From IMG/VR virus record IMGVR_UViG_3300025324_000002, positions 1-59,633 of that record: a DNA stretch of 59,633 nt. One strand, 5' to 3'. This stretch comes from a virus. The position numbers and the translations under genes are program-made. The stretch's first letter is position 1; the number at the start of each line of letters is the position of its first letter. The notes under the pieces were generated by a model. The model was not told the origin of the DNA. It did no database searches and saw only the letters and a program-made list of their open reading frames with translations. Positions 7,561 to 59,633 of the stretch are shown piece after piece.

Positions 7561-7562
7561 CA

Positions 7563-9959: not shown

Positions 9960-10034
9960 ATCTAGTGGCTTCGCTTGCTTTTGTTACGCGCCGATCATGG
10001 CAGGAAATTAAAAAACCAGTTGGAGGGTTTTAAA

Positions 10035-10463: not shown

Positions 10464-10464
10464 G

Positions 10465-11058: not shown

Positions 11059-11127
11059 TGACCCAAATAATTAACCCAGCTTCGGGGCTGTGAAATACCA
11101 GCCCCTCGCTATAACAAAGGAGTCTAT

Positions 11128-12080: not shown

Positions 12081-12728
12081 ATGATCAAAGACGAAGTCAT
12101 CGATAGAGTTGTCGAGCTGGTATCTGATAAGTCCGGTGAGATGCGGCTACTCGTGTCTCATTGGGTAGATATCGTCTTGGCTGATATCGCATCGCGCGGG
12201 CTGCTTCATTCCCTCAAGAGGGGGGAGAATGCCTATACCCTAGTGCTCGGGCAACGTGACTACACACTGCTCTCGACTACCGATCATATTACACAGGTAT
12301 TCGTGCTGGCATGGGGATCGGAGGGCAGGCTGACGAAGAAAAGCGACGACGAGTTTTTAAAGCTCGTATTAGACGAGGGTACGACTCAGGGCCGTCCTAA
12401 ATATTACAATGTGTTTAGCAATCTTATTAGGTTTCATCCCGTACCGGACTTGGCTAGCGCCCCGGTTAGTCCAAGCGTAAGTGAGAAAGTAACGACATGG
12501 GGATATAGAGACATAGCCAGTATTGCCGATACAGCCGACATCCCTGAACTCAAGCTCAAGCACATTCCGACTCTGATCTACGGTGCCTATTCGTTCGGTG
12601 CAAAATTCGACTCGATACTCGATGCCGCCGATGCAACCATGAAGTACGAGCGCGGAGTCAACAGAATCATAGGCGATTCCAATAGAGACCTCGATAGACC
12701 GTCGCAGGTGCCGTATCAGGATTTGTAA
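12081..12728 (+). CDS. putative head-tail adaptor
   Basis: 215 aa; position and general adaptor-like pattern only. Confidence 0.4.
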   Translation: MIKDEVIDRVVELVSDKSGEMRLLVSHWVDIVLADIASRGLLHSLKRGENAYTLVLGQRDYTLLSTTDHITQVFVLAWGSEGRLTKKSDDEFLKLVLDEGTTQGRPKYYNVFSNLIRFHPVPDLASAPVSPSVSEKVTTWGYRDIASIADTADIPELKLKHIPTLIYGAYSFGAKFDSILDAADATMKYERGVNRIIGDSNRDLDRPSQVPYQDL

Positions 12729-12731
12729 ACA

Positions 12732-14252: not shown

Positions 14253-14263
14253 GAGTTGAATCA

Positions 14264-15067
14264 ATGGGCGTAATTGTAAAACCGAATACTTTTACAGGTG
14301 AGGCTGCGCCTCAACTCCCATGGCTCGATGCTGATATCGATACCATCTACTCCGAATTCAACGGCAATATCGACAATGCGAACGTCAAAGCCAATGCCTT
14401 AATTGCCGAATCCAAAATCGCGAACCTCGTTACCGATCTCGCCGCTAGATTGTTATTGTCGGGAGGCGAACTAACCGGCCTATTGCATATATTTACCGCC
14501 GCCGCAACTATTTACTTAGAAGACTCCGGTGGAAAAGAATTTGCTATCGGATCGGGCGGCAATAGCATTATAATTTCCGAAAACACCGGAACGCATGCCG
14601 CGCCGGTTTATACAGAGCGTTACACATTGCCGAGCGGCGCTGGCGGACCGGCGACAGGGAACGATCTAACCACTAAAACCTATGTTGATGGGTTACACGC
14701 CTGGCTAGTTAATGGCGCGGCGCCCGCTACTCCGGCGGCGAATACTCTTTACCGTGACTTGATTGTAAAGGGGTGGTTGGAAACCAGTGGCGCTGGAGCT
14801 TGGACCATCGATGCTGATGTTAACGTGGCCTCCATTACCGACAATGGCGTTGGCAACTTTACGATCAACTGGGCTACGGCGTTTGCGACTGCAAATTATG
14901 CGGTGGTTGGATCGGGCGGATCTCTGTCCGGCGATCCTCTATACCTCCGCGAAGATCCGGCAACCCCAAAGACTGCCAGTGCAGTGACGTTAATAGTTAC
15001 GGGCACATCGGGCGTTCCGGGAGACCCCGACGTAGGAGTAAGTGTGATGGCGATAGGGGCACAATAA
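14264..15067 (+). CDS. tail fibre protein
   Basis: N-terminus PNTFT...LDADIDTIYSEFNGNIDNANV...SKI is a common fibre N-terminal pattern. Confidence 0.6.
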   Translation: MGVIVKPNTFTGEAAPQLPWLDADIDTIYSEFNGNIDNANVKANALIAESKIANLVTDLAARLLLSGGELTGLLHIFTAAATIYLEDSGGKEFAIGSGGNSIIISENTGTHAAPVYTERYTLPSGAGGPATGNDLTTKTYVDGLHAWLVNGAAPATPAANTLYRDLIVKGWLETSGAGAWTIDADVNVASITDNGVGNFTINWATAFATANYAVVGSGGSLSGDPLYLREDPATPKTASAVTLIVTGTSGVPGDPDVGVSVMAIGAQ

Positions 15068-15068
15068 A

Positions 15069-15413
15069 ATGAAAGTCCGAGTGTACCAAGAACCATCCGG
15101 CAATCTGAGAATAGTTCGGATCAATCCGCGCCTTCGAGAAGTAGACGAAAGCGACGATGATTGCTTTATCAGGATTGCAGGGATGGCAGAAGCTGGCGAT
15201 TCGTCGCTGCAAGGGTTATCCTTCGTGGACGTGGATGAGGCCGAAATCCCCACTGATCGCGCTGAGCGCTATAAATGGCGCATACAGGCCGGAAAGTGCG
15301 TTGTCGATAAGACCATTCCAGATAAGTTTGATCCTAGAGAAGACTTGAAACAACGGATCAATGCCGCCACGACTATTGCTCAATTGAAGGTGTTGATGAG
15401 GGAATTAGTCTAG
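15069..15413 (+). CDS. hypothetical protein
   Basis: 114 aa, tightly packed. Confidence 0.5.
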   Translation: MKVRVYQEPSGNLRIVRINPRLREVDESDDDCFIRIAGMAEAGDSSLQGLSFVDVDEAEIPTDRAERYKWRIQAGKCVVDKTIPDKFDPREDLKQRINAATTIAQLKVLMRELV

Positions 15414-15694
15414 TGCCTAGACGTGTCCAAAGTGGAGGTGAGTTCGAAGAGCAATTCAGGGAGATAATTGATACCGCCCTGGATAAAACTATTTATGCCG
15501 AAGTCACAACGCACGCGACACCGGATACCGAGTTTTCTATCGAGCATGGCATGGGTGTCATCCCAACGGGTTATATCCCGATCAAGCAAGACAAGGCGGC
15601 TTCTATATACGATGGTACAACGGCAAACACTACCAGCCTGCTTTACCTTCGCTGCAATGTGGCGTCCGTAGCAGCTAGAATACTGATATTTTAA
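15413..15694 (+). CDS. hypothetical virion-module protein
   Basis: 93 aa; start overlaps the upstream stop. Confidence 0.5.
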   Translation: MPRRVQSGGEFEEQFREIIDTALDKTIYAEVTTHATPDTEFSIEHGMGVIPTGYIPIKQDKAASIYDGTTANTTSLLYLRCNVASVAARILIF

Positions 15695-16134
15695 TGCAAC
15701 GCATCGGATCATACCTCGACGACAAACAGGGCGAACTGCTCCTGACCGCCTACAGACTTGCCCGAAAGTCGTTTCCGAATGCCACCTCGGATGAACTTCT
15801 TGACCTGTTGGAACTTTGCCGAAAAAACAACGGGCTTTTTATTGATCGGGATTTAGAAATTGTTATGGGCGTATTTTGGTACTATCCGGGGAGTCGAATT
15901 GCGGGCAAGAAGATGGTCGATATTGTCAAAGAGTATGACTTGGACACTTTGAAGTTGTTGGATCTGCGTGAAGGCAGCGTTCTCCATATTGTGGGATACG
16001 TCGGACCCAAGGGTGCATTCCCAATGGTTAGGAAGATGATTCACGATCTTAACCCGCGTGCTGTATCGACGCATCGTGAAAAGCCGGAAGGGCGATACTT
16101 CGCTCTTAGAAAGAACACGAGTCACCATGTTTAG
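15694..16134 (+). CDS. hypothetical protein
   Basis: 146 aa; TAATG overlap. Confidence 0.5.
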   Translation: MQRIGSYLDDKQGELLLTAYRLARKSFPNATSDELLDLLELCRKNNGLFIDRDLEIVMGVFWYYPGSRIAGKKMVDIVKEYDLDTLKLLDLREGSVLHIVGYVGPKGAFPMVRKMIHDLNPRAVSTHREKPEGRYFALRKNTSHHV

Positions 16135-16816
16135 ATTTGATATTCGGTCGTTGTTTGACTGCGAAGACTCCTTTTATATTCCTGGAATTTGCTGCATTAG
16201 CATGGGCAAAAGTAAAACAAAGAGCCAATCGTCAAGCGGGACGCGATGGAATTCCGAATTCATGAACGAACTGGAGAAAAACGCTCCGCCCATTCGATAT
16301 TCCAATGAGCAAGATGGCGTCACGGTTGAAGGTGGCGAAGAAGGAGTGCCCCAACAATTCAACCTTGGATTGCCTAAATTCCGCGGCCTCGAAGACTTGG
16401 ATTTTGATAAGCTGGAGAAAGGGCTTTACACCAGACAGATTCAAAATACCGATCCCCAATATAAGCAGGCCAGAGCAACGCGCCGGGAGGAACTATCGCA
16501 GTCCGGCCTGTTGGATTCTCCGGTACAGTACAGCGAGGGTGGCGCAATCGATCAGCTAGACAAGGCGTATCTTGCTGAGACGCAAAAGGCCGCGCAAGAC
16601 GCATCGAACAAAACTATCGAGTTGAAGGCTCAGGAGCTAGCCCGCAAAACTGGCTTTGATATCGATATGGTGAAACTGTTCCAGACCATCATGATGCAAT
16701 ATGCCGATGTAGCCTTAAGAGCTGGTCAATTTGGTCAGCAAAGCAGCGTGGGCAGCGGTAGTCAAAGGGGATTTATTACATTCGGTCCCAGTAGCAGCGG
16801 CAGCACCGCCGAATGA
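16127..16816 (+). CDS. putative internal virion protein
   Basis: ATG overlaps the upstream stop by 8 nt (alternative ATG at 16202); Gln/Ser-rich. Confidence 0.45.
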   Translation: MFRFDIRSLFDCEDSFYIPGICCISMGKSKTKSQSSSGTRWNSEFMNELEKNAPPIRYSNEQDGVTVEGGEEGVPQQFNLGLPKFRGLEDLDFDKLEKGLYTRQIQNTDPQYKQARATRREELSQSGLLDSPVQYSEGGAIDQLDKAYLAETQKAAQDASNKTIELKAQELARKTGFDIDMVKLFQTIMMQYADVALRAGQFGQQSSVGSGSQRGFITFGPSSSGSTAE

Positions 16817-33601: not shown

Positions 33602-33668
33602 CCTTGCAAAGGGGTCAGGTTTTCCAGCACTCAGGCCCGGTTGAGAAATCTTCCGGGCCTTTGTGTTT
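33602..33668 (+). ncRNA. candidate small RNA 1 (P1 to H2)
   Basis: About 67 nt between the predicted +1 and the H2 U-tract; no credible ORF. Confidence 0.35.
33633..33668 (+). terminator. hairpin H2 with U-tract
   Basis: aggcccgg-TTGAGAAATCTT-ccgggcct, then ttgtgttt. Confidence 0.55.
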
Positions 33669-33701: not shown

Positions 33702-33811
33702 ACGGTGAAGGAACACACAAAGGGACCTGCGGACCCCCATTTATCTGAATAGCTACGCAGGGCGATGTCAGGTAAGGCCGGGTTGAGAAATCTTCCCGGC
33801 CTTTGTGTTTT
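33702..33811 (+). ncRNA. candidate small RNA 2 (P2 to H3)
   Basis: About 110 nt ending at H3; no credible ORF. Confidence 0.35.
33774..33811 (+). terminator. hairpin H3 with U-tract
   Basis: aaggccggg-TTGAGAAATCTT-cccggcctt, then tgtgtttt; same loop as H2, with a compensatory stem change. Confidence 0.55.
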
Positions 33812-34431: not shown

Positions 34432-34791
34432 TTACGCTGTCTTGATAACGCCTTTAGTCCTCGAACTATGTCTACTTGCGTCCCCTTTGTCCTGGATTTT
34501 CGCGTTTTGTTCCCGCCCAAAATCACTCTGAGCTTTGCTCTGCGCAGTGCCGCGCGAATCTGTTTTAGGTTCATGCGGCGCGTGGCGTTGCAAGTCGCGT
34601 TCCGTGAGCAGGTCACATTCAGCCATCAGAGGAAGCAGGCGGAGAAACGCCGCGAACTGTTTCTCTAAATTACTGCCGGCGTTTTCCATTCCCTGAATCA
34701 TTTGCTGATTCGTGTTCAATTGCTGCGCTAATTGGGCCTGGGTCCAGTTTTTTTCTTGCCTAATTTTCCTAATTGTTTCGCGCAATTGCAT
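34432..34791 (-). CDS. XRE-family HTH regulator (repressor-like, no peptidase domain)
   Basis: IRKIRQEKNWTQAQLAQQLNTNQQMIQGMENAGSN; divergent from the early operon. Confidence 0.7.
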   Translation of the reverse strand: MQLRETIRKIRQEKNWTQAQLAQQLNTNQQMIQGMENAGSNLEKQFAAFLRLLPLMAECDLLTERDLQRHAPHEPKTDSRGTAQSKAQSDFGREQNAKIQDKGDASRHSSRTKGVIKTA

Positions 34792-42852: not shown

Positions 42853-43728
42853 ATGTCGTATCTTCATATTGCGAATCTTTATCGGCCTGAAGCCCAACGG
42901 ATTCTTGAATTTAAGCAAGTATTCGTCATGGAAAAAATACACGGCACCTCGGCGCATGTGGCTTGGAAGGATAATGCTCTACGGTTTTTCTCCGGTGGAT
43001 CGAAGCATGAAACGTTCGTTGCTCTGTTCGCGGAGGAACAACTGCAGGCCGCATTTAGCGAGATGGCAAATCCCGATGTGACTGTCTACGGCGAAGCCTA
43101 TGGCGGCAAAATTCAGGGAATGAGCAAAGTTTATGGACCCAAGATTAGATTCGTAGCCTTCGAAGTCAAGATAGGCGGTTCTTGGCTTTCTGTCCCACAG
43201 GCTTGCGATATTGCCGTGAATAGGCTCGGTTTGGACTTTGTTTGCTACGATCTGAGCGCAACCGATATTGAATCGCTGAACGAGCACCGAGATGCAAACT
43301 CGGCTCAGGCCATGAAAAACGGCATGGGCGAGCATCCACGCGAAGGTATAGTAATCCGTCCGCCATTTGAGGTCATCCTAAACAACGGCGAAAGACTAAT
43401 TGCTAAATACAAAACCGAAGCATTTCAAGAACGGACACGCGAGCCCAAGATAGGCGAAGATTTGAAAACTCTCACCGATGCCGAGGCGGCAGCGGATGAG
43501 TGGGTCACAAATAACCGGATGGAGCATGTACTAGATTCGTTGTGTTCCGAATCTGTGGATGTTCAGGATATTACCGCCACGGGTGCAGTGATTAAGCGAA
43601 TGTATCAAGACATAGAGCGTGAGGGCGCGGGAGAACTTGAGTTTTCAAAAATGCTTTCGCGGGCTATCGGACAAAAAACGGCCAAAATGTTTAAGCAGAG
43701 ATTGCAGACGCGGATTAATGAGGGGTAG
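42853..43728 (+). CDS. RNA ligase (Rnl2 / PF09414-like nucleotidyltransferase)
   Basis: Motif I EKIHGTS (Lys at 42934..42936), GEAYGGKIQG, FVAFEV, REGIVIRP, AKYK. Confidence 0.7.
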   Translation: MSYLHIANLYRPEAQRILEFKQVFVMEKIHGTSAHVAWKDNALRFFSGGSKHETFVALFAEEQLQAAFSEMANPDVTVYGEAYGGKIQGMSKVYGPKIRFVAFEVKIGGSWLSVPQACDIAVNRLGLDFVCYDLSATDIESLNEHRDANSAQAMKNGMGEHPREGIVIRPPFEVILNNGERLIAKYKTEAFQERTREPKIGEDLKTLTDAEAAADEWVTNNRMEHVLDSLCSESVDVQDITATGAVIKRMYQDIEREGAGELEFSKMLSRAIGQKTAKMFKQRLQTRINEG

Positions 43729-43731
43729 GGG

Positions 43732-44946
43732 ATGACGCCATCTAACGCCTGGATGGGCTGCTACGAGATGGGCTGGCAAGGGCTAATTGTGCCAGAGGCA
43801 TTCGCTCATCCTGCCAAGGTCTCCCGCGGACTGATCCGCCGCATCTACAAGCACGCCTTTGACGAGGGCTGGCTGAAACACGGCGATTCGGTGGTTGATC
43901 CATTCGGCGGCATCGCCGGCACAGCCTTAGACGCCATGTGGAACCGCTGTCACTGGATAGGTGTGGAGTTGGAACCCCGCTTTGTGGCGCTAGCCGAGCA
44001 GAACATCGCTCTTTGGCAACGCAAGTTCGGGAGCAATGCGGGCTGGGGCCGAGGGATAATCATTCAGGGGGACTCCCGGCAGTTGGTGAGCGTGATAGCG
44101 GGCGCGGATTTGATTTGTTCTTCGCCGCCGTTCCATGACTCGATGAGCAACAAACCAAGTGCGCAGATTCTAGCTGGTAGCGGCGGGCGCATGGGTGAAA
44201 GTTGCAAATCTAACGATATCTACGGCACCACCGAAGGCCAGCTAGGCCGCATGAAAGAAGGCACCCCGCCGAGCGTGGAGATGATTGTCGGGAGCCCGCC
44301 GTTTACCGACAGCATGAACACGCAAGACGTTAAATTTTGGCACAAACACATAACCGATATCGGGCGTGATCCCGATACACCAGGGGCGAGAAGTTTGATT
44401 GGCGATTACGGCTCCACTCCCGGCCAGCTCGGCGCCATGCCCGAGGGCAAGTTTGACGCGGTGATTAGCTCGCCGCCGTTCGAGCAAAGCAATCTCACGG
44501 TTGACAAAAATTTTATGGCCCAGGTTGAGCGAGACAAACGTAATGGGTCCCGTCTGCAGCCAGGACTCGGCACGTACGGAAAAGAGGCTGGCAACATCGG
44601 CAACCAATCCGGCTCCACTTTCTGGACCGCCGCCCGCGAGATTGTCGCCCAATGCCACGCGATATTGCGACCGGGCGGTCACTCGATTTGGGTTTGTAAG
44701 GATTTCGTTAGAAAGGGCCAGCGCGTGCCCTTCAGCGACCAATGGCAGGCGCTATGTGAGGCGGAGGGCTTTCGGCTGGTCTGCCGCCATCGCGCAATGC
44801 TCGTGGCGCATCACGGGGAGCATGGTCAGTTATTCGGTGGGAGCGAACAACTCAAAACCGAGCGAAAGAGTTTTTTTCGCAGGCTTGCCGAGAAAAAAGG
44901 TAGCCCTGCGATAGACTGGGAAGACGTGCTCTGCTTGGAGCGATGA
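43732..44946 (+). CDS. DNA N4-C/N6-A methyltransferase with triplicated SPPF motif IV
   Basis: AHPAK...VVDPFGGIAGT (motifs X and I), then SPPF at 44122, 44293 and 44470; LRPGG after the third. Confidence 0.8.
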   Translation: MTPSNAWMGCYEMGWQGLIVPEAFAHPAKVSRGLIRRIYKHAFDEGWLKHGDSVVDPFGGIAGTALDAMWNRCHWIGVELEPRFVALAEQNIALWQRKFGSNAGWGRGIIIQGDSRQLVSVIAGADLICSSPPFHDSMSNKPSAQILAGSGGRMGESCKSNDIYGTTEGQLGRMKEGTPPSVEMIVGSPPFTDSMNTQDVKFWHKHITDIGRDPDTPGARSLIGDYGSTPGQLGAMPEGKFDAVISSPPFEQSNLTVDKNFMAQVERDKRNGSRLQPGLGTYGKEAGNIGNQSGSTFWTAAREIVAQCHAILRPGGHSIWVCKDFVRKGQRVPFSDQWQALCEAEGFRLVCRHRAMLVAHHGEHGQLFGGSEQLKTERKSFFRRLAEKKGSPAIDWEDVLCLER

Positions 44947-45410: not shown

Positions 45411-45746
45411 ATGCAGCAATCCAAGCCGGGCATAAAGCTGAATCCGCTAATAGCCTCCAAGACAACGCCGATATTTGAGGCGGACCCGAAGCGATACCAG
45501 CGAATTTGCCGCTGGGTTTGGACGCAGCAAAAACGGGGCTGGCCGGACGAAGCGATAGCGGAGGCGCTCAGTCTGGCCGGCACGAACATTCACAGGGCCG
45601 ATAGCTGGTGGAAATATCTGACGGCATTGTTACCGAAAGGGAAAGGGCGCGCGGCGGAAATTGAATCAACTCGCCATAAATCGGAAGTGGGAGAGATCGC
45701 GGGCGAGTTTGTTGAGTTTCTAAAGCAAAAGAGAGGGGCAAAATGA
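45411..45746 (+). CDS. hypothetical protein
   Basis: 111 aa; ATGA overlap with the initiator gene. Confidence 0.45.
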   Translation: MQQSKPGIKLNPLIASKTTPIFEADPKRYQRICRWVWTQQKRGWPDEAIAEALSLAGTNIHRADSWWKYLTALLPKGKGRAAEIESTRHKSEVGEIAGEFVEFLKQKRGAK

Positions 45747-46264
45747 AAGAACGGATTAACCCATATAACATGTTCGTCGGCTCATTTATTCCGAACTGGC
45801 TATTAGAGCAGCCTGAACTAAGCTCGAACGCGAAACTTGTCTATGGCCGGCTTTGCCAGTTTGCCGGGAAAGATGGGCGGGCATTCCCGACTATCGAGAC
45901 TCTTAGCGTGAAGACGGGCCTTTCTAAGAGTACAGCCGAAAGAGCCCTGGCTGAACTTAAAGACGCCAAGCTTATTGACGTTGAAAGACACGGGTTGAAT
46001 CAGCCTAATAGCTATTTTTTTTTACGCCATAAGTGGATGGATGGGAAACCGGATACGTCACCGGTGACGTATCAAGATACTTCAACGTTGACGGATCAGG
46101 ATACGTCACCGGTGACGTACATAAGAGAATCAGAAGAAGAGAATCAGTTAAGAGATCCCGCAAGGCGGGCGCCTTCGGCGGGTTCTTTAAAGAAATCAGG
46201 ATCGGGAATGACACCGGAAGCGGCCAAGGCGCACCTTAAACAACTGCGCGAAGGACTGAATTGA
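45743..46264 (+). CDS. replication initiator, winged-HTH (lambda O / DnaD-like)
   Basis: LSSNAKLVYGRLCQFAGKDGRAFPTIETLSVKTGLSKSTAERALAELKDAKLI; carries internal iterons. Confidence 0.65.
   Translation: MKERINPYNMFVGSFIPNWLLEQPELSSNAKLVYGRLCQFAGKDGRAFPTIETLSVKTGLSKSTAERALAELKDAKLIDVERHGLNQPNSYFFLRHKWMDGKPDTSPVTYQDTSTLTDQDTSPVTYIRESEEENQLRDPARRAPSAGSLKKSGSGMTPEAAKAHLKQLREGLN
46051..46119. repeat. putative origin iterons inside the initiator gene
   Basis: GGATACGTCACCGGTGACGTA at 46051..46071 and 46099..46119; GATAC+TTCAACGTTGA between them; GATAC phased every 24 bp. Confidence 0.55.
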
Positions 46265-52879: not shown

Positions 52880-53107
52880 ATGGCTGAACGGGAGCATAAA
52901 ACAGACGGAACTCCGTGCTGGTGCAATCTGATCAGAGTTAGCTACAAGACTGAATATGACCTTGCTATAGCATTGGCAAATCATGTTCTGGAAAAGGCTC
53001 ATCTTGATCCCGATTCGGACTTGTCCACGCTGGCCCGTCAATTTCTGCGATTGGTTGAACGGTGCCAAGCGCCGGAGCCCAAGGCTAAGGAGCCGAATTA
53101 TCCATGA
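52880..53107 (+). CDS. hypothetical protein
   Basis: 75 aa; AAGGAG RBS. Confidence 0.45.
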   Translation: MAEREHKTDGTPCWCNLIRVSYKTEYDLAIALANHVLEKAHLDPDSDLSTLARQFLRLVERCQAPEPKAKEPNYP

Positions 53108-53346
53108 GCGACTTAGATAATTTTATCGACCGTGATAAATGTCCTCGATGTAAGTGTTGTGAGGCAGATTTTTATAAATGTGAGAATTGTGTTGAAGGAT
53201 ACGTAGGGCATGATTGCGGTGATGATACCTGTTGCTGTCTTGACCCAGAAGATAATGTAATTTGCGATGCTTGCTATGGCAAAGGGTTTTGGTTGATTTG
53301 CCGGGGGAAAGATTGCAAAGGGCAATGTGGAAAAGGGAAGTCATGA
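53104..53346 (+). CDS. Cys-rich protein with DnaJ-type CxxCxGxG element
   Basis: 17 Cys in 80 aa; CDACYGKG. Confidence 0.5.
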   Translation: MSDLDNFIDRDKCPRCKCCEADFYKCENCVEGYVGHDCGDDTCCCLDPEDNVICDACYGKGFWLICRGKDCKGQCGKGKS

Positions 53347-53609
53347 GCACCGGAATGGTAATTTGTAGCAAGTGCTTGAGGGAAGTGCATCAAGATCTCG
53401 TTGACCATACTTGGTATCATTGCGAGGATGCAACGCCACGGTGCGACGGCGCCGATTCTGTTTATCCACTCATGGGGCACGTTAAGGGCTATTGGTGCGG
53501 GAGAGATGGGAATCCCGGTGGTCCCAGCTATTGCGAATATTGCGGAGCACTTGTACCGGACGGCGGTTCTTTTTGTGATCCATATTGTACGGACTTGGGG
53601 CAAAGATGA
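53343..53609 (+). CDS. Cys-rich protein
   Basis: ATGA overlap; CSKC...CEYC...C..C. Confidence 0.45.
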   Translation: MSTGMVICSKCLREVHQDLVDHTWYHCEDATPRCDGADSVYPLMGHVKGYWCGRDGNPGGPSYCEYCGALVPDGGSFCDPYCTDLGQR

Positions 53610-53833
53610 GCGCCCCGTATCCGGTAAACATGCCGGGAGAAAACATGAGCGGCTTCGATGTTTGTGTAAAACGAAAAGGTATTCTCTATTGGTGTTTCCT
53701 TTCAGTCACCGGCATTAAATGCGGCGCTTGCAAACGTGGGAGAATTAGAACGCCATGGCTAGGATATATCTGCAAGGTTTGTGGGGCTGAAGTGATTCAC
53801 AATAGGGAATCAATCAAAGGTTGCGCACGTTAA
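53606..53833 (+). CDS. Cys-rich protein
   Basis: ATGA overlap; CGAC...CKVC. Confidence 0.45.
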   Translation: MSAPYPVNMPGENMSGFDVCVKRKGILYWCFLSVTGIKCGACKRGRIRTPWLGYICKVCGAEVIHNRESIKGCAR

Positions 53834-54069
53834 TCTTTGGGAGTATCGGAGTCCAAAAGGAAATACGATGTTTGCTCGGTAGCAGCGAGGAGATCGTTGA
53901 TTTGCTGCAAGACCTTTTCGGGATAGTTCGGCTGCACGATATTAGGCATGAGATTATCGGCAACCACCTTGCCAAGGATGGGAATTACCAATTTAAGAGC
54001 GTTGCGCATCGCTTCGTTTCGTGTTTCTAACTTATAAATTTGCTCATCTATGGCGGTTGCTAGTTTCAT
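53830..54069 (-). CDS. hypothetical protein (last gene of the leftward operon)
   Basis: AAGGAGAATGACCATG initiation region, identical to that at 56676; its stop shares TTAA with the convergent gene. Confidence 0.5.
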   Translation of the reverse strand: MKLATAIDEQIYKLETRNEAMRNALKLVIPILGKVVADNLMPNIVQPNYPEKVLQQINDLLAATEQTSYFLLDSDTPKD

Positions 54070-54112
54070 GGTCATTCTCCTTTAACTCACGCTCCACTTA
54101 TAGTTAAAATAG

Positions 54113-54274
54113 TCACTGTCGTTGGGGTGCCATTTTATCCTCAGTACAGGCTTTGCACCACACTGCTATCGGCGACTGTTTTCGTTGACACCTGCCGTTA
54201 TGTCCCACCGCGCACTGCGGGTTTACGCAGACACAGCGTAGCAGGCCATATTTGTTTTTATTTTTGCGATTCAT
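54113..54274 (-). CDS. small zinc-ribbon protein
   Basis: 53 aa; AAGGAG RBS; CVC..C...C...CKAC. Confidence 0.45.
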   Translation of the reverse strand: MNRKNKNKYGLLRCVCVNPQCAVGHNGRCQRKQSPIAVWCKACTEDKMAPQRQ

Positions 54275-54276
54275 GA

Positions 54277-54729
54277 TTAGGACTCCTTGGCTTGTGCGAT
54301 CGCGGCGCGGGCCTGTCCTTGTGCGCAATCACAAGGTATTACGTGGCAATATTTATCATGCACGGGCATAGGTGACAGAAGCCGTTTCAGCGCCTCCAGC
54401 ATCGCCGCGTTGTCGCGGGCGAGCTTGGCATTGTCGGCCTTAAGGCTTATATTCTCGGCAGTAAGTACGTCTAGTTTTGCCATCGCCATCCCCGGCGAAA
54501 TCTCCCAGGCATGCATCTCCAATTCTGCTGTTAGTCGTTCGTTGTCGCGGGCGAGCTTGGCGTGGGAGTTGAATCGGTTTACGATATCATCAGCCGTCCA
54601 GTCACTGCTAATATTACATGCTACGGTTATCTCTCTTGCGTTGGTCACGTCATGCCAGTGGAGATCGATTCGAGATCCGTTTTGAACTTTAAAAATAGGA
54701 CCATCTATATAGGTGTGTTTCGTTGTCAT
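54277..54729 (-). CDS. hypothetical coiled-coil protein
   Basis: 150 aa from MTTKHTY; GGGAGGAGAGG RBS; the C-terminus lies in the 35-bp repeat. Confidence 0.5.
   Translation of the reverse strand: MTTKHTYIDGPIFKVQNGSRIDLHWHDVTNAREITVACNISSDWTADDIVNRFNSHAKLARDNERLTAELEMHAWEISPGMAMAKLDVLTAENISLKADNAKLARDNAAMLEALKRLLSPMPVHDKYCHVIPCDCAQGQARAAIAQAKES
54298..54332 (-). repeat. 35-bp junction repeat, copy 1
   Basis: GATCGYGGCGCGGGCCTGTCCTTGTGCGCAATCAC; 34/35 identical to 54755..54789. Confidence 0.9.
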
Positions 54730-54754
54730 GTCATTCCTCTCCTCCCGCTTGTTT

Positions 54755-54789
54755 GATCGTGGCGCGGGCCTGTCCTTGTGCGCAATCAC
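54755..54789 (-). repeat. 35-bp junction repeat, copy 2 (relic C-terminal coding)
   Basis: Lies between the stop at 54803 and the start at 54729. Confidence 0.9.
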
Positions 54790-54802
54790 TGTGTCCTCCG
54801 TT

Positions 54803-54952
54803 TCAATCCGTCAAATCCTCGTCATCCTCGCCGTCCCCGTCATCATCGTCCGGCTCGAGCCGCTCGAGCCGATACAGCCGCGCTTGCTCGGCGGCAATCT
54901 CGGCCTCGGTGTACAGGCCGTATTTGCCGTTTATGGTGTAGGGGCGTGTCAT
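54803..54952 (-). CDS. small acidic protein
   Basis: 49 aa, below the cutoff; GGAGAAACGATAATG RBS; DDDDGDGEDDED tail. Confidence 0.4.
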   Translation of the reverse strand: MTRPYTINGKYGLYTEAEIAAEQARLYRLERLEPDDDDGDGEDDEDLTD

Positions 54953-55062
54953 TATCGTTTCTCCTTTTCAGTTTGGTTAGTGCTCGCCTTGACGGAGCGA
55001 GCCCGAGGCTGGCGTGCCACCGTTCGCCACGGCCCGGAGTGGGCCGGAGAGAATTAAGCCGG

Positions 55063-55473
55063 TTACGAAACGCTCCATTTGTAATTAAAATAATCGCTCT
55101 GCAGGTCGCTCCGGTCGTCGTGGTTAGGAAATGCACGGAGCAGAACGGTTTCTAACTTTTTCGCTGCACTCCAATGGGTTTGATTGCGAATCTTGGCCGG
55201 CACGTTGTCGGGCATATCGGCAAAGGATTGCCCGCGGTAGTCAACGCCGTTGTAGAAATATTCGGAATCATGGCCCATATAGCCGGGGATTTTGACATCC
55301 ACAGCCTGCGCCATGCTGTAGTTAGGCGCCGTCACGCTGACACCCTTGATGCCGAGCCTCTTGAATAGCTCGCGGCAGAGCTTGGCTTGCTCCTTGCGCC
55401 GGATAGAGCGGTCGGTTGACATGACAGGAACCTTGTCCAGGTTCACGCTAAAAATTTGAGTTAGAGTTTCCAT
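55063..55473 (-). CDS. conserved phage protein
   Basis: 136 aa from METLTQ; GGGAGGATAACATG. Confidence 0.5.
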   Translation of the reverse strand: METLTQIFSVNLDKVPVMSTDRSIRRKEQAKLCRELFKRLGIKGVSVTAPNYSMAQAVDVKIPGYMGHDSEYFYNGVDYRGQSFADMPDNVPAKIRNQTHWSAAKKLETVLLRAFPNHDDRSDLQSDYFNYKWSVS

Positions 55474-55516
55474 GTTATCCTCCCGCCCGGCAGCCACGCC
55501 GGGCTTTGTTTTGGGT

Positions 55517-56044
55517 TTAGTCTATTACCGTGTCATAGTTGGATCTCAACCCGCTTTCAGGGCTAAAGGTCATACTCAGGACAAATCCCTGTTCGATGAA
55601 TTTCAACGCCTGCTCATAGGTTGGTTTTGGGCTGATATCCCTGTAGCCGTGTTGATATGCAAAATCGCCATTTTCCGACAGATAGCGAGCAAGCTCTTGT
55701 TTTGTTGCAAACGGCGGGCTGACTGGTGTTCCCTCAGTTACGGTTTCATAGATCTGAAACCATGTTGGTTCGACGGCGAAATTTGGTCGATAAGATTCCC
55801 TATCGGGCGGGTTGCCATCCTGTTCCCAGTAGTATTTACACGTAGCCGGGTTTTCGCCCATTTGGTCCTCATGTTCACCTTTAGCCCACCGGATGCAGCT
55901 GTCAACCCACTGATTCGCGACTGTTTCATAGTCCCGGTCGTGCATCGGAATATATTCGCCGACCAAATTTGATTGTGGAGCATTATCCTTCGCATAGCAT
56001 GGATGTTTCCAGTTGGGTGGCACCATTCTTATTTCCCGTCCCAT
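55517..56044 (-). CDS. conserved phage protein
   Basis: 175 aa; MVPPNWKHP...YETVTEGTPVSP pattern recurs in phages. Confidence 0.55.
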   Translation of the reverse strand: MGREIRMVPPNWKHPCYAKDNAPQSNLVGEYIPMHDRDYETVANQWVDSCIRWAKGEHEDQMGENPATCKYYWEQDGNPPDRESYRPNFAVEPTWFQIYETVTEGTPVSPPFATKQELARYLSENGDFAYQHGYRDISPKPTYEQALKFIEQGFVLSMTFSPESGLRSNYDTVID

Positions 56045-56155
56045 TGTTTTTTTCCTTTCCTACGCACCTGCCACGGCGCGCTCGTTTTGGCCCGTCGTGG
56101 GGCGATATCGTTAGCCGGACATGGAGTTGAATTTTTTATCTAACCGTTTTCCTTC

Positions 56156-56183
56156 CCTCCATGTTCTGCGCCAGTCCGTTCAC
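56156..56183 (-). repeat. junction motif B, copy 1
   Basis: Minus-sense GTGAACGGACTGGCGCAGAACATGGAGG; the ATG here opens only an 8-codon ORF. Confidence 0.85.
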
Positions 56184-56192
56184 ATCCGCCTG

Positions 56193-56450
56193 CTATGACC
56201 CATAGCGCGCTATTCGCGCTTCTGTTCTCTCTCGCCGCAATTGCGTTTTAATTTCATCAGGAGTTAATCCGCGCTGTCTTATGCGGTCTAGTGCCGCTTT
56301 GAATTCGCTCGCCGTTGGTTGCCACTGAGGGTGGCAGCTAGTCTGGATCATTTTTCTTTCTAAACACGTCCGGCATTTTGGTACTTCCGTCTCTATGGCT
56401 TTTAACGCATGATATTCATGCGCTTCTTGGTTAAAAGATTGATATGACAT
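56193..56450 (-). CDS. hypothetical protein
   Basis: 85 aa; preceded by motif A. Confidence 0.5.
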   Translation of the reverse strand: MSYQSFNQEAHEYHALKAIETEVPKCRTCLERKMIQTSCHPQWQPTASEFKAALDRIRQRGLTPDEIKTQLRRERTEARIARYGS

Positions 56451-56457
56451 TTTAATT

Positions 56458-56484
56458 CCCTCCAGGTTGCAGAGTTAGGGGTTA
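56458..56484 (-). repeat. junction motif A, copy 1
   Basis: Minus-sense TAACCCCTAACTCTGCAACCTGGAGGG. Confidence 0.85.
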
Positions 56485-56676
56485 CATCAATCGGCGCCAT
56501 TCTTCGCCAGCCTTGAGAAACTCGTCATGACCTGCGATCTTTGCTCCTTCTGGCTGGTAGCGTTTATCGCCGGCCTGCTTGCCAAAGGCTGCTTTTAGAT
56601 TTGCAGACCATGCGTGATCAGCGGCTAAAAATCGCTGGTACGCCTCGGTCACTAGCTCCTTTTTAGTTTTCTCCAT
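56482..56676 (-). CDS. hypothetical protein
   Basis: 64 aa from MEKTKKEL; AAGGAGAATGACCATG. Confidence 0.5.
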   Translation of the reverse strand: MEKTKKELVTEAYQRFLAADHAWSANLKAAFGKQAGDKRYQPEGAKIAGHDEFLKAGEEWRRLM

Positions 56677-56696
56677 GGTCATTCTCCTTGTCTTAG

Positions 56697-56714
56697 TTCC
56701 CTCACGTCCGGGGC
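56697..56714 (-). repeat. junction motif C, copy 1
   Basis: Minus-sense GCCCCGGACGTGAGGGAA; encodes the C-terminus ..PRT* of 56702..56848. Confidence 0.85.
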
Positions 56715-56848
56715 TCTGACGGGCATTTAGGGCATGTACATTTATCGCAATGCCAGGTTGAGCCATGCTCGATGATCGGGTCTCCGCGTACTAGATAAGT
56801 CCGGCACACGGGACAATTTTCGTTACTCGTCAGTCTTAAAGGTGTCAT
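56702..56848 (-). CDS. micro zinc-ribbon protein
   Basis: 48 aa, below the cutoff; CPVC...CDKCTCPKC. Confidence 0.45.
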   Translation of the reverse strand: MTPLRLTSNENCPVCRTYLVRGDPIIEHGSTWHCDKCTCPKCPSEPRT

Positions 56849-56864
56849 GGTTTTTCCTGCTCAT

Positions 56865-56882
56865 TTCCCTCACGTCCGGGGC
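56865..56882 (-). repeat. junction motif C, copy 2 (non-coding here)
   Basis: Identical 18-mer, upstream of the start at 56848. Confidence 0.85.
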
Positions 56883-56908
56883 CTGCTGCCAGGCCCGAGG
56901 GTCGGGGA

Positions 56909-57079
56909 CTAGATGGGCCTTACCGCGGCGTCGGCAGCTTCCCCAGTCCAGCGATTACCTGAACTGTGAGCACCAGCCTCGACGCAGCGCTCTAATTCTC
57001 TTTTGTGCGCGTTACAGGCGTTGCCGTGTTTTGCTGTTGTCCACTTTGCCTCGTTGTCGCACCAGTTGCATGTTTTCAT
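56909..57079 (-). CDS. micro zinc-ribbon protein
   Basis: 56 aa; CNWC...C..H; CTGGAGGAACGACCATG RBS. Confidence 0.45.
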   Translation of the reverse strand: MKTCNWCDNEAKWTTAKHGNACNAHKRELERCVEAGAHSSGNRWTGEAADAAVRPI

Positions 57080-57086
57080 GGTCGTT

Positions 57087-57112
57087 CCTCCAGGGTTCGG
57101 AGTTAGGGGTTA
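57087..57112 (-). repeat. junction motif A, copy 2
   Basis: Minus-sense TAACCCCTAACTCCGAACCCTGGAGG. Confidence 0.85.
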
Positions 57113-57259
57113 GGTCGCTTTTAGGGCAGTCTTAGCTTTTAGCATTTGCCGCCAAATAATTTCAGGGACCTTTGTCCCGCCGAGATCTTCGACCACGCCG
57201 ACAAATTCGATCAATACGCGTCTGAGCTTTTCTATTTCTATCGTGAGCTCGTTTTCCAT
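57110..57259 (-). CDS. micro helical protein
   Basis: 49 aa; TAGGAGTATAAAATG; its stop lies in motif A. Confidence 0.4.
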   Translation of the reverse strand: MENELTIEIEKLRRVLIEFVGVVEDLGGTKVPEIIWRQMLKAKTALKAT

Positions 57260-57268
57260 TTTATACTC

Positions 57269-57409
57269 CTATTTTTTTGACTGCTGTTTGCATTCTTTAC
57301 ACTTGATTGTAATTGTAACTAGATCGGGGGTTACGGATACAACACTATGATCTGTTATCGCGCCGTCGCATTTCTCAGAGTGGCAACGGCAGTAAAAATG
57401 GTCAAACAT
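57269..57409 (-). CDS. micro zinc-ribbon protein
   Basis: 46 aa from MFDHFYCRCH...CKEC; the start lies in motif B. Confidence 0.45.
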   Translation of the reverse strand: MFDHFYCRCHSEKCDGAITDHSVVSVTPDLVTITIKCKECKQQSKK

Positions 57410-57413
57410 TTGT

Positions 57414-57441
57414 CCTCCAGGTTTTGCGCCAGTCCGTTCAC
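57414..57441 (-). repeat. junction motif B, copy 2
   Basis: Minus-sense GTGAACGGACTGGCGCAAAACCTGGAGG. Confidence 0.85.
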
Positions 57442-57473
57442 GTCTGCCCCCAGCCGGGGGCAGGGTCAGGGGA

Positions 57474-57641
57474 CTAGGCTTTTCGCTTGCCGCCGGCCAC
57501 GGTGGCGAACTCATATCCGCTAGGCCGGGCAGGCGGAGTTATGATCTCTACCGCTGGGTCCAGGCAAACCCAGTGCCGATCAGATAGCGGCACTGGGGGA
57601 TTGTCGTTGTTTGCCTGTTTGCAAACTGGACATATTTTCAT
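57474..57641 (-). CDS. micro zinc-ribbon-like protein
   Basis: 55 aa; MKICPVCKQ...; AAGGAGGATGACAATG. Confidence 0.45.
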   Translation of the reverse strand: MKICPVCKQANNDNPPVPLSDRHWVCLDPAVEIITPPARPSGYEFATVAGGKRKA

Positions 57642-57647
57642 TGTCAT

Positions 57648-57674
57648 CCTCCTTGGTTGCGGAGTTAGGGGTTA
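57648..57674 (-). repeat. junction motif A, copy 3
   Basis: Minus-sense TAACCCCTAACTCCGCAACCAAGGAGG. Confidence 0.85.
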
Positions 57675-57806
57675 ATTCGCTCGCCCGTCTTTCTTTGCTG
57701 ATTTTAAACAGGCAGCGCAAACAGGTTCCGGCGTACCGCCGTGAAAAACGAAATTTTCTCCGTTACAGTTTTTGCCGCATTCTGAACACTGTTCGTATTT
57801 TTTCAT
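57672..57806 (-). CDS. micro zinc-ribbon protein
   Basis: 44 aa; CSEC...CAAC; AAGGAGGATAACATG. Confidence 0.45.
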   Translation of the reverse strand: MKKYEQCSECGKNCNGENFVFHGGTPEPVCAACLKSAKKDGRAN

Positions 57807-57811
57807 GTTAT

Positions 57812-57832
57812 CCTCCTTGGTTGCTGAGTTAA
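57812..57832 (-). repeat. junction motif A, partial copy 4
   Basis: Minus-sense TTAACTCAGCAACCAAGGAGG. Confidence 0.7.
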
Positions 57833-57861
57833 TCTTTAGCTAATTCAATACTCAAAAAAAA

Positions 57862-58038
57862 CTACGCTGCGTGTTCGGTCAAAACTTTATCAACTGCGAG
57901 CTGTACCACGAGGGGGATTTCTTTGTTGCCACGCTCGTAATTGCTCAGTGTGACCGGGTGCACTTCTATAAGCTTTCCGAGCTGCGCTTGTGTGAGCCCG
58001 GCTTGCTCGCGTCTGGTTTTCAACTCGATTGCGTTCAT
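57862..58038 (-). CDS. XRE-family HTH regulator
   Basis: 58 aa; LKTRREQAGLTQAQLGKLIEVHPVTLSNYERG; ATGA overlap with the upstream gene. Confidence 0.7.
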   Translation of the reverse strand: MNAIELKTRREQAGLTQAQLGKLIEVHPVTLSNYERGNKEIPLVVQLAVDKVLTEHAA

Positions 58039-58232
58039 GCGTGGCAATCCCTTGCGCAGTCTTGGCACACGTTAAACGTGCCGTAAGCTGTTTTGACGAC
58101 TTGGATATATGCAGGTGTGAACTGTCGGCCATATTGATGACCTGGATTGCCGTTTGGTGTGCGCTTAGCTGATTCCATGTGTGCGATGTGCTCGCACTGG
58201 CATTGCGGAGAATCTATTTTTTTTGCGTTCAT
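58035..58232 (-). CDS. small Cys/His-rich protein (first gene of the leftward operon)
   Basis: 65 aa; CQCEH...CQDCARDCH. Confidence 0.5.
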   Translation of the reverse strand: MNAKKIDSPQCQCEHIAHMESAKRTPNGNPGHQYGRQFTPAYIQVVKTAYGTFNVCQDCARDCHA

Positions 58233-58284
58233 AATTTTCTTGACCCTCTACCCTATTAAGGTGAGAAAATCGTGCCAAGCAATC

Positions 58285-58299
58285 GTCAACCAAGTTGAC
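58285..58299. promoter_or_regulatory. dyad GTCAAC-CAA-GTTGAC upstream of the leftward operon (candidate operator)
   Basis: Perfect 6-3-6 palindrome; minus-sense TTGACT-18 nt-CACTAT just upstream. Confidence 0.4.
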
Positions 58300-58406
58300 A
58301 TAGTGAGTGAATTCATGCAGTTGAGTCAAAAACTATTTTAGCGTGAGGCTAAAAATACATATTTAGTCGTATGCTAAATTGGGCGCCTGGTGTGCATATA
58401 GTTTAC

Positions 58407-58423
58407 GTGCCGATATTTCGGCA
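58407..58423. repeat. GTGCCGATATTTCGGCA dyad, copy 1
   Basis: Identical 17-mer at 58436..58452. Confidence 0.9.
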
Positions 58424-58424
58424 G

Positions 58425-58461
58425 GGGGTCCACAGGTGCCGATATTTCGGCACTTGACCCC
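58425..58461. repeat. nested hairpin: GGGGGTC...GACCCCC enclosing dyad copy 2
   Basis: 7-bp outer arms around GTGCCGATATTTCGGCAC. Confidence 0.8.
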
Positions 58462-58808
58462 CGAGGGTAAGTAGCGCAAAAATAAGCCGATCGGACGGTC
58501 AAAGCCGATTCCGCTTGACAGATTCTGCCGAGTCTGTTTTAAGATGTTTCTACCGTCCTGAAATGCTACTCTCAAAGCCCAATTAAGATTGACGGCTTCA
58601 ACCTTGACGATAGTTTGATAGCGTAGCGGCTGTCTATGTGTGGCGCCTACCATCGCTAGTGTCTCATCGGCTTATCATCACTACCGCTTGACATCGGACA
58701 AAATTGGGAGTAAGGACAGAATTGTGCTAAGTCCAGGGTGTCGATTCCTCCTTCGCGGTAATGGCCGGTATCTCAGCAATGAGGTGCCGGCCTTGCTGTT
58801 TAAAGACC

Positions 58809-58994
58809 ATGAGTATCACGGCAATCAACTATCATGATCGTATCCTACCCGGCTCCAAGTGTCCGGTGTGCGGCACGATCGTATTTCCGCCGCGGCGGGT
58901 TGCTCACTGTATTAGGCGTCATCGACTCAAAATGCTGGCGCTACGAGCTTACATCGCACCGGTTAAAGCGTGGCTGGAAAGGGCTAGGCTGTAG
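58809..58994 (+). CDS. small zinc-finger protein (candidate late activator)
   Basis: 61 aa; CPVC...HCIRRH; just upstream of the packaging operon. Confidence 0.4.
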   Translation: MSITAINYHDRILPGSKCPVCGTIVFPPRRVAHCIRRHRLKMLALRAYIAPVKAWLERARL

Positions 58995-59010
58995 TTGCGA
59001 AATATCGCAA
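58995..59010. repeat. dyad TTGCGAAATATCGCAA (same CGATATTTCG core, inverted)
   Basis: Its reverse complement shares the 10-nt core with the 58407 and 58436 copies. Confidence 0.7.
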
Positions 59011-59024
59011 CATTGCATTTTGCA
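59010..59024. repeat. ACATTGCATTTTGCA, copy 1 (TTGCA-N3-TGCA dyad)
   Basis: Identical 15-mer at 59045..59059. Confidence 0.9.
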
Positions 59025-59042
59025 CGATAGTTAATGTATTAA
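59013..59042 (+). promoter_or_regulatory. candidate packaging/late operon promoter
   Basis: TTGCAT-18 nt-TATTAA; the two dyads overlap the -35 box and the +1 position. Confidence 0.4.
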
Positions 59043-59044
59043 GT

Positions 59045-59059
59045 ACATTGCATTTTGCA
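59045..59059. repeat. ACATTGCATTTTGCA, copy 2
   Basis: 35 bp after copy 1. Confidence 0.9.
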
Positions 59060-59084
59060 ATAATGGTTCAACGGAGATCAACCG

Positions 59085-59534: not shown

Positions 59535-59633
59535 ATGCAATGTGGTGACCTAATTATCTAAGGTGCGGGCGTTAACAGTGTTGACCGTAAATAAAACGAT
59601 GATCGAGTTAATAGCGATGGAATCGGTCGCCGT
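59535..59633. repeat. 99-bp terminal direct repeat, copy 2
   Basis: Identical to 1..99. Confidence 0.95.

Follow-up and report, generated by a model that had tools for sequence, protein, structure and literature searches.

The DNA analysed here, referred to as the window, is the whole of the viral record IMGVR_UViG_3300025324_000002 (59,633 nt), whose positions serve as coordinates throughout. Its two ends are identical over 99 nt (1–99 = 59535–59633), which shows the assembly to be circularly closed and the phage genome, of about 59.5 kb, to be complete. The phage is a novel environmental podovirus-like phage with a P22-type portal, and its large terminase TerL (630–2084) has 26% identity to its best match in GenBank phages. 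Nearly all of the genes are directed rightward. The sole long leftward block, which is the subject of this account, consists of sixteen small genes (g1–g16, Table 1); it converges at 53830 on the end of a rightward block, and it diverges from a rightward terS-like gene across a non-coding region of 850 bp. An earlier reading of the sequence alone (the original prediction) took the block for an operon in which a helix-turn-helix (HTH) regulator of the XRE type accompanies an array of tiny zinc-ribbon proteins, and likened its layout to that of acr-aca operons. The evidence leads us to favour, tentatively, a lineage-specific accessory operon whose genes have been gained and lost as cassettes.

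Gene content of the leftward block

All sixteen open reading frames (ORFs) predicted on the minus strand between 53830 and 58232 were found to be present. Nine of them encode products of fewer than 60 residues; the figure of eight given previously is obtained if the XRE gene is taken from a longer ORF with a GTG start. Fifteen large genes of the phage were used to train a codon-usage model, by which the annotated frame was the best of the six for every gene (16/16), the scores for g1, g5, g8, g10 and g15 being near zero or negative. A match of 5–7 nt to AAGGAGG is located 4–9 nt upstream of 13 of the 16 starts, as against 1 of 74 other ATG codons in the block. The strong ribosome-binding site that had been ascribed to every gene is accordingly present for 13, while g1, g2 and g8 have 4-nt matches only. 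Intergenic gaps range from -4 to 148 nt and no terminator-like site was found on the minus strand of the block. At its far end the stop codon of g16 overlaps that of a convergent plus-strand gene in the palindrome TTAA (53830–53833), and since there is no terminator-like site on either side the convergent transcripts would overlap. Most of the ORFs have been called independently by public gene callers in other assemblies of the same phage.

These observations make it hardly probable that a number of the micro-ORFs (g8, g5 and g15 above all) are non-coding, and that the DNA between g1, g2, g11 and g12 is instead spacer or decayed cassettes. Twelve of the ORFs are orphans, five have the low codon scores just mentioned, and decay has left its mark on the block in the form of gene remnants and an orphan Shine-Dalgarno (SD) site, described below; g8, with its weak SD site and its end inside a repeat, is the least secure gene of the set. 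Such a reading must nevertheless contend with the preference for the annotated frame in all sixteen cases, with strong and correctly spaced SD sites on nearly all the genes and on almost no other ATG, with the tight, non-overlapping packing, and with the independent calls in public assemblies.

The small products are mutually unrelated, as had been proposed: none of 120 pairwise comparisons was significant, and paralogy among the micro-proteins was rejected by a shuffling test, so that an origin by tandem duplication followed by divergence is unsupported at the protein level. Searches of all 16 products against Pfam and PHROGs, and of ten of them (all save g3–g8) against NCBIfam and PADLOC, gave no match except for the XRE protein g2, and no structural or replication signature was seen among the products, again in agreement with the original prediction. 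The twelve orphans had no relative in any of the loci compared, without one-by-one searches of the 5.8-billion-protein collection.

Table 1. Genes, candidate control elements, junction repeats and gene remnants of the leftward block and its control region
Feature	Position	Strand	Description
g1	58035–58232	-	65 aa; widespread uncharacterised phage family, eight conserved Cys/His positions
g2	57862–58038	-	58 aa; Cro/C1-type (XRE) HTH, DNA-binding domain only
g3	57672–57806	-	44 aa; orphan, C7xxC10...C30xxC33, classical two-knuckle zinc-ribbon pattern; publicly called gene
g4	57474–57641	-	55 aa; orphan, C4xxC7...H23xxC26
g5	57269–57409	-	46 aa; orphan, C7xC9H10...C14...C37xxC40
g6	57110–57259	-	49 aa; orphan, no Cys, helical-looking sequence
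g7	56909–57079	-	56 aa; orphan, C4xxC7...C22xxH25...C32
g8	56702–56848	-	48 aa; orphan, six Cys, weak SD, last six codons in B-type junction repeat
g9	56482–56676	-	64 aa; orphan, no Cys
g10	56193–56450	-	85 aa; orphan, C26xxC29...C39H40
g11	55517–56044	-	175 aa; large uncharacterised phage family, purifying selection
g12	55063–55473	-	136 aa; uncharacterised phage family, C-terminal motif AFPNHDDRSDxQSDYFDYxWS
g13	54803–54952	-	49 aa; orphan, acidic C-terminal tail (DDDDGDGEDDED)
g14	54277–54729	-	150 aa; orphan, coiled-coil-like, internal 22-nt perfect repeat, C-terminal CH...CxC
g15	54113–54274	-	53 aa; orphan, six Cys
g16	53830–54069	-	79 aa; orphan, last gene
Paired palindromes, 7-4-7	58407–58424, 58436–58453		18 bp each, GTGCCGA-nnnn-TCGGCAC, 29 bp apart; 0 matches in 100 shuffles
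Related palindrome	58994–59011		18 bp, GTTGCGA-AATA-TCGCAAC, ahead of rightward terS-like gene (59085)
Direct repeats	59010–59024, 59045–59059		15 nt, perfect (ACATTGCATTTTGCA), just upstream of terS-like gene
A-type junction	57639–57674, 57077–57112, 56448–56484; partial 57804–57838	-	36 nt, TAA-CCCCTAACTCyGCAACC-SD-ATG, 82% mean identity
B-type junction	57407–57476, 56846–56911, 56674–56725, 56130–56195	-	core GAyGTGArsGGA
g12-like 3' end remnant	54082–54114	-	DYFNYKWSVS-stop, between g15 and g16; 25/33 nt identical
g14-like 3' end remnant	54747–54807	-	..DCAQGQARATIKQ.., upstream of g14; 82% over 61 nt

Absence of the block from related phages

Searches of IMG/VR and of JGI metagenomes with TerL yielded three relatives, with TerL proteins 80, 79 and 62% identical to that of the present phage. 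None of the 16 proteins has a homologue in the 10, 4.7 and 2.2 kb of DNA available upstream of their TerL genes; in two of them (L011 and L050) rightward genes lie upstream of TerL and there is no leftward operon. The block is therefore lineage-specific and of accessory type, varying from one lineage to another. Homologues of g1, g11 and g12 do occur in other phages, where they sit among quite different small genes, and because of this the three genes appear to behave as independent cassettes. A megablast search of the block against GenBank phages gave no match. Logan, ENA and JGI between them contain at least seven samples in which the same phage (98.9–100% identity over aligned stretches) was recognised, and the source metagenomes include SRR3989293, ERZ27254865 and JGI 3300002121. 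Exact-protein look-ups in metagenomes revealed this phage but no diverged strain. Neither among the TerL relatives nor in a scan of IMG/VR for the junction sequences was there a sister genome with an alternative cassette content.

The XRE protein g2 and the divergent control region

The assignment of g2 as an XRE-type regulator is secure. The protein passes the Pfam gathering scores of two models for the Cro/C1-type (XRE) family, HTH_3 (PF01381; 39.4 bits against a cut-off of 23, E = 6.2e-10) and HTH_31 (PF13560; 40.6 bits against a cut-off of 27, E = 3.3e-10), and it also matches 16 PHROG regulator families. In a phmmer search of all PDB chains its closest solved relatives were HipB, P22 C2 and C.BclI, with weak matches (E 0.006–0.03), and PADLOC models for a 'control protein' also match it weakly. 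It has no oligomerisation or sensor domain. Its start codon overlaps the stop codon of g1, as expected from the ATGA coupling of a Cys/His protein to the regulator that had been noted previously. A contig that seemed to carry a variant of the operon with a 140-aa HTH protein (L005; ENA ERZ28563660 scaffold_93833) was rejected as a probably chimeric assembly: the XRE gene is broken off there at its middle and fused to unrelated GC-rich DNA (positions 1–471), which makes the 140-aa protein a false one, and the scaffold contains runs of N.

The perfect 6-3-6 dyad (GTCAAC-TTG-GTTGAC, 58285–58299) that was originally noted ahead of the operon is indeed present, 53 bp upstream of the start of g1, but one 6-bp dyad in 850 bp is near what chance would provide. 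The paired 7-4-7 palindromes, which lie 175–220 bp upstream of g1, are the best candidate operators for the XRE protein and stronger ones than the dyad. On the other side of the control region, a palindrome of related sequence and the 15-nt direct repeats are likely to serve the rightward operon as operators or promoter elements. A publicly called minus-strand ORF of 96 codons (58363–58653), with a weakly positive codon score, was considered as a seventeenth gene and set aside; it has no SD site and contains both of the paired palindromes. The control region also contains a doubtful plus-strand ORF of 60 codons with a CxxC motif (58812–58994), whose longer, 77-aa version (58761–58994) gives a sub-threshold match (E = 1.2e-4) to the rubredoxin-like zinc-ribbon model zf-ChsH2.

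Three conserved families of uncharacterised proteins

Homologues of g1 were found in 206 representative clusters at E ≤ 1e-3, with identities of up to 64%; the family as a whole is uncharacterised. The family is defined by the signature CxCEHxxH...TPNGNPGHxYG...YGTFxVCxDCxxDC, in which C11, C13, H18, H32, C56 and C59 are invariant and two further Cys/His positions nearly so; these eight residues are ligands enough for two metal sites. An AlphaFold2 model of g1 (pLDDT 92.4) gave no fold match, and in particular no zinc-ribbon match, when compared with the PDB by Foldseek. Members of the family longer than g1 were scanned for domain fusions and contained no Pfam domain. The family is almost absent from 185,579 cellular genomes (a limited scan) and tblastn found no member in GenBank phages, while in IMG/VR it occurs in 16 contigs, among small and often Cys-rich genes. 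In none of these 16 other viral loci is the g1 homologue followed by an XRE gene, and no g2-like XRE lies nearby. Judged from these loci, the coupling of this conserved, putatively zinc-binding protein to an XRE regulator is unique to the present phage.

These contexts bear on the view that the block is a lysogeny or moron region, in which the XRE protein would be a switch of immunity or Cro-like type, and a resident prophage or plasmid-prophage would express the genes downstream, to bring about superinfection exclusion or to benefit the host, and also on the related view that g1 and g2 are a toxin-antitoxin-like pair. Morons often lie between the early and late regions of lambdoid phages, and the block indeed occupies such a place, with the rightward early region ending on one side of it and the late operon starting on the other. 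The overlap of g1 and g2 is like that of many toxin-antitoxin pairs, HipB antitoxins and P22 C2 are among the closest solved relatives of g2, and a second, longer XRE protein encoded elsewhere in the genome suggests repressor-type control. Both views are nonetheless very unlikely, given that g1 is never followed by an XRE in the other viral loci and is nearly absent from cellular genomes, that g2 lacks an oligomerisation or sensor domain, that no toxin model was matched, and that no integrase, recombinase or partition domain was detected in a Pfam scan of 20 other ORFs of the phage (110–525 aa). A type II pair of HigBA/HipBA-like or MqsA-like organisation was specifically rejected on the grounds that none of the 16 g1 loci has a g2-like XRE nearby and g1 matches no toxin model; the MqsA model itself matches only the HTH part, with 28 bits against a cut-off of 61.8.

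The other two families are also large. The 495 matches to g11 are all unnamed, and tblastn against GenBank phages found a single weak match, in the Burkholderia jumbo phage FLC9; the predicted structure (pLDDT 94.6) has no fold match in the PDB or in a viral structure library. For g12 there are 118 matches, in which the C-terminal motif is strongly conserved. Conservation of the reading frames among related phages had been proposed as a check on the reality of the genes, and it is borne out for g12 and g11, where the proportion of nonsynonymous differences from the nearest homologue (pN) is far below that of synonymous differences (pS): pN 0.127 and pS 0.745 for g12, indicating strong purifying selection, and pN 0.23 and pS 0.76 for g11. 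The conservation of g1 is apparent from the family alignment. The few mismatches among public copies of the phage itself were left out of this test because they are clustered at contig ends.

One homologue of g11 (in contig L029) directly follows an XRE gene. A homologue of g12 is located near the head of an array of small genes (7498–16341) in an unrelated 41.8-kb phage contig with a T7-type head-tail connector (ENA ERZ27247828 k141_1319359), an array that diverges from the structural genes, runs into replication-type genes, and looks like an early region; it also holds a 60-aa XRE protein followed by a pentapeptide-repeat protein. It is from these contexts of g11 and g12 homologues alone that early expression of the present block is suggested.

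Products with paired cysteine and histidine motifs

Paired Cys/His motifs were seen in all seven of the genes for which they had been reported (g1, g3, g4, g5, g7, g8 and g15) and also in g10. Cysteine accounts for 3.7% of the residues in the products of the operon (45/1212), as against 0.9% in phage proteins of more than 200 residues. Taking a zinc ribbon to consist of two CxxC-type knuckles, typically 15–30 residues apart, that jointly provide four ligands, the full sequence pattern is found in g3, and versions of it with His or with irregular spacing in g4, g5, g7, g8, g10 and g15. On this pattern evidence, eight of the products look like small zinc-binding modules. Small Cys-rich genes are a trait of the whole phage and not of the leftward operon alone, since three more such ORFs abut it on the plus strand (53104–53833), one of them encoding 80 residues of which 15 are Cys; 54 of the approximately 105 predicted genes of the phage specify proteins of 100 residues or fewer.

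In being phage-encoded, of about 45–85 residues, and furnished with paired Cys motifs, these products recall TraR and the lambda protein Orf73, two cases in which a small zinc-finger protein acts directly on host machinery (PMC9239242). They differ in that Pfam, its DksA/TraR zinc-finger model included, gave no match to any of them, and g1 also has its Cys residues differently spaced and a different predicted architecture. The precedent, which comes from phages and plasmids and has RNA polymerase as its target, lends some credence to a phage-internal role, whereby the zinc-binding proteins would serve as regulators of transcription, translation or packaging, or as DNA- or RNA-binding factors, that time the late terS-terL-portal operon, with the XRE protein coordinating the divergent promoters. 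Such a role would suit the sharing of the 850-bp control region between the block and the rightward terS-like gene, with its related palindrome beside the latter. Homologues of g1 also often adjoin genes of DNA metabolism, for example a large ATPase-like ORF (L032) and a methylase-like ORF (L036), as recognised by motifs in their translations, without a family search. We regard a phage-internal role as rather unlikely even so, because relatives with TerL proteins 62–80% identical run the same late genes without the block, and because searches with regulator models, among them DksA/TraR and Ogr, matched none of the products.

Junction repeats and gene remnants

The junctions between the genes are more alike than the genes themselves. 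An A-type element precedes g4, g7, g10 and, in part, g3, and a B-type element follows g4, g7, g8 and g10. Two of the four copies of the B element form hairpins, the first of -32.7 kcal/mol (z -3.1) and the second with z -1.4, and neither has a U-tract. In the B copy that follows g10 a GGAGG site has been kept, and is followed only by a mini-ORF of eight codons; the 148-nt gap before g11 resembles the trace that a lost cassette would leave behind. Neither repeat is found anywhere else in the genome. In IMG/VR the A patterns had no match at all, and a 17-mer from the B core had eight matches, which is close to chance expectation, and every one falls within unrelated coding sequence.

Two remnants of gene ends lie between intact genes. 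The first reproduces the last ten residues and stop codon of a g12-like protein, and since the identical peptide is specified by different codons it must derive from a diverged homologue rather than from g12 itself. The second resembles the 3' end of g14. Read from the sequences, the two remnants and the orphan SD site show that the block has undergone rearrangement or recombination in the past. An arrangement that the first remnant would predict, with a homologue of g12 directly before one of g16, was not found in the homologue contexts compared.

A close parallel to this organisation is offered by the hyperplastic regions of T4-type phages with their PeSL cassettes, which are promoter-plus-terminator units (Arbiol et al. 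2010, PMC2839356; PMC4122927). In both cases non-essential arrays of orphan genes are divided by repeated short intergenic cassettes, some with stem-loops, and there are signs of insertion, deletion or replacement at the junctions. In the present phage, which is unrelated to T4, the repeats are instead modules of a stop codon and an SD site, together with hairpins that lack a U-tract; no sigma-70-like promoter was found on the minus strand in either the A or the B junctions; and the repeats were found in no other viral contig. The parallel could be pressed further, to a micro-gene cassette array in which the A and B junctions form a PeSL-like or integron-like device for swapping tiny zinc-binding effectors among co-infecting phages, with the g1 family as the conserved partner of an XRE switch. 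So specific a proposal is distinctly doubtful.

Organisation of the rest of the genome

The packaging and structural genes run rightward; they begin with the terS-like gene at 59085, pass over the point at which the circular map is joined, and extend to about 33.6 kb. A GC-rich hairpin followed by a T-run (AGGCCCGGTTGAGAAATCTTCCGGGCCTTTGTGTTT) is present there in two 94%-identical copies (33633–33668 and 33775–33810) 142 nt apart, and this pair of terminator-like hairpins probably marks the end of the rightward late operon. A short leftward gene pair follows at 33.9–34.8 kb, which includes the second XRE-type HTH protein (34432–34791, minus strand, 119 aa, HTH_3 E = 5e-7). This unit faces rightward genes that begin near 35104, and the protein may be a CI/Cro-like switch.

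The rightward block from 35.1 to 53.8 kb contains many small genes and also genes for an RNA ligase, a DNA methylase and an HTH_36 protein. The RNA ligase (PF09414, E = 1.7e-12) adjoins the DNA methylase (N6_N4_Mtase) at 42853–44946; an apparent counterpart ORF in one of the TerL relatives (L011) is larger (558 aa), a match made without a family search. Three iterons of 21–24 nt (GGATACGTCACCGGTGACGTA) at 46051–46119, two of them perfect copies and one at 76%, sit within the gene for the HTH_36 protein (45743–46264), and by analogy they look like a replication origin of the lambda-O type inside an initiator gene. When the whole window was scanned for Rfam families and for tRNA genes, neither were detected.

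A model for the operon, and its comparison with known systems

We put at roughly one half the probability that the block is an accessory operon specific to this lineage and controlled by the XRE protein, that it encodes small binding proteins, probably zinc-stabilised in many cases, and that it has been built by cassette turnover. Transcription would start, presumably from a single promoter, in the divergent control region (58233–59084) and would proceed leftward through all 16 genes. Translation of g1 and g2 would be coupled, while the 14 genes downstream would each be served by an SD site of their own. The family to which g2 belongs, its position, and the palindromes nearby suggest that it probably binds a palindrome upstream of g1 and so limits or times its own operon's expression, much as Cro, the restriction-modification C proteins and Aca do. 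The products (44–175 aa) would most likely be stoichiometric binders of proteins or nucleic acids of the host (or of the phage), and in this broad sense host-modulation factors; a role directed at the host is proposed because the products have no structural or replication signature and because the block is dispensable in relatives. The array itself would have been assembled and remodelled by recombination at the repeated junctions of stop codon and SD site, which would make its genes exchangeable cassettes.

Several points weigh against this proposal. No convincing sigma-70 promoter was detected upstream of g1, promoter-like sites there being no commoner than in shuffled sequences, and the gaps of 148 nt between g10 and g11 and of 110 nt between g12 and g13 could hold internal promoters. 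As there is a second XRE protein in the phage, g2 is not the sole candidate for a switch protein. Zinc binding is deduced from sequence patterns, the structural models covering g1 and g11; the timing of expression and the host targets are likewise proposed from sequence. As the A and B repeats were seen in no other viral contig, the case for exchange of cassettes from phage to phage comes down to the two remnants. Finally, 12 of the 16 genes have no homologue, so that for these not only function but translation itself is argued only from ribosome-binding sites and codon statistics.

Another suggestion is that the block is an anti-defence locus. Here one or more of the small proteins would inhibit immune systems such as CRISPR-Cas, restriction or signalling systems, and the XRE protein would be an Aca-like repressor of a strong early promoter. 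The resemblance in layout is real, as the original prediction proposed, in so far as a small HTH regulator shares an operon with small unrelated proteins in a variable, fast-turnover, lineage-specific locus, with palindromes in the promoter region; inverted repeats are the binding sites of Aca proteins, which are HTH repressors (PMC6765145, PMC8633003). The resemblance fails in the order and number of the genes: in acr-aca operons, which are short, the acr genes normally precede aca (PMC8633003), whereas g2 is not downstream of one to three candidate effectors but is the second of 16 genes, with 14 downstream of it, in an operon far longer than is typical. Solved Aca structures are reported to include Aca1 and Aca2 (PMC8633003, PMC8434428), and g2 matched no Aca at E ≤ 1 among all PDB chains. 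Nor did the model searches given above, or the fold searches with g1 and g11, match any product to a defence-related or anti-defence-related model or structure. The comparison of predicted structures with Acr folds that had been recommended was made for g1 and g11 and gave nothing significant, the best and only Acr retrieved being 7du0 at E = 8.2. The presence of g1, g11 and g12 in many phages also suggests general phage functions rather than inhibitors of the defences of one host. An anti-defence role is thus a possible but, on this layout analogy, an unlikely explanation.

Other comparisons are likewise partial. The host-takeover module of the Bacillus phage SPO1 is an early-gene module of a lytic phage. 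The present block resembles it in its clustered small genes, strong ribosome-binding sites and lack of structural or replication homology, and differs from it in having a dedicated XRE within the operon, in being transcribed against the rest of the genome, and in having no known homology to SPO1 genes. With the C proteins of restriction-modification systems and with Cro, g2 shares a minimal XRE HTH placed near the 5' end of a presumably regulated operon; unlike the C proteins, it has no restriction or methylase gene in its operon, and it is preceded by, and coupled to, a protein of zinc-binding type. Phage genomes commonly contain arrays of small orphan genes accompanied by a local HTH regulator, and the block looks like an ordinary fast-changing accessory region, with nothing to show that it counters bacterial defences.

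Significance

As it stands, the finding leaves knowledge of phage accessory regions unchanged. What lifts the block above the routine are its three unannotated families, the coupling of a protein of zinc-binding type to an XRE regulator, and the repeated junctions and accompanying remnants, which resemble PeSL cassettes minus their promoter and terminator parts. With 12 of its 16 genes lacking detected relatives, the block constitutes a well-delimited piece of phage dark matter, and its junction repeats and remnants allow the way in which such arrays come together to be read from the sequence. The large families to which g1, g11 and g12 belong are targets for structural and functional work, g1 and g11 having been confidently modelled without a known fold. 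If any of the products proved to inhibit a host process or a host defence, the result would reach, through these conserved families, to hundreds of other phages.

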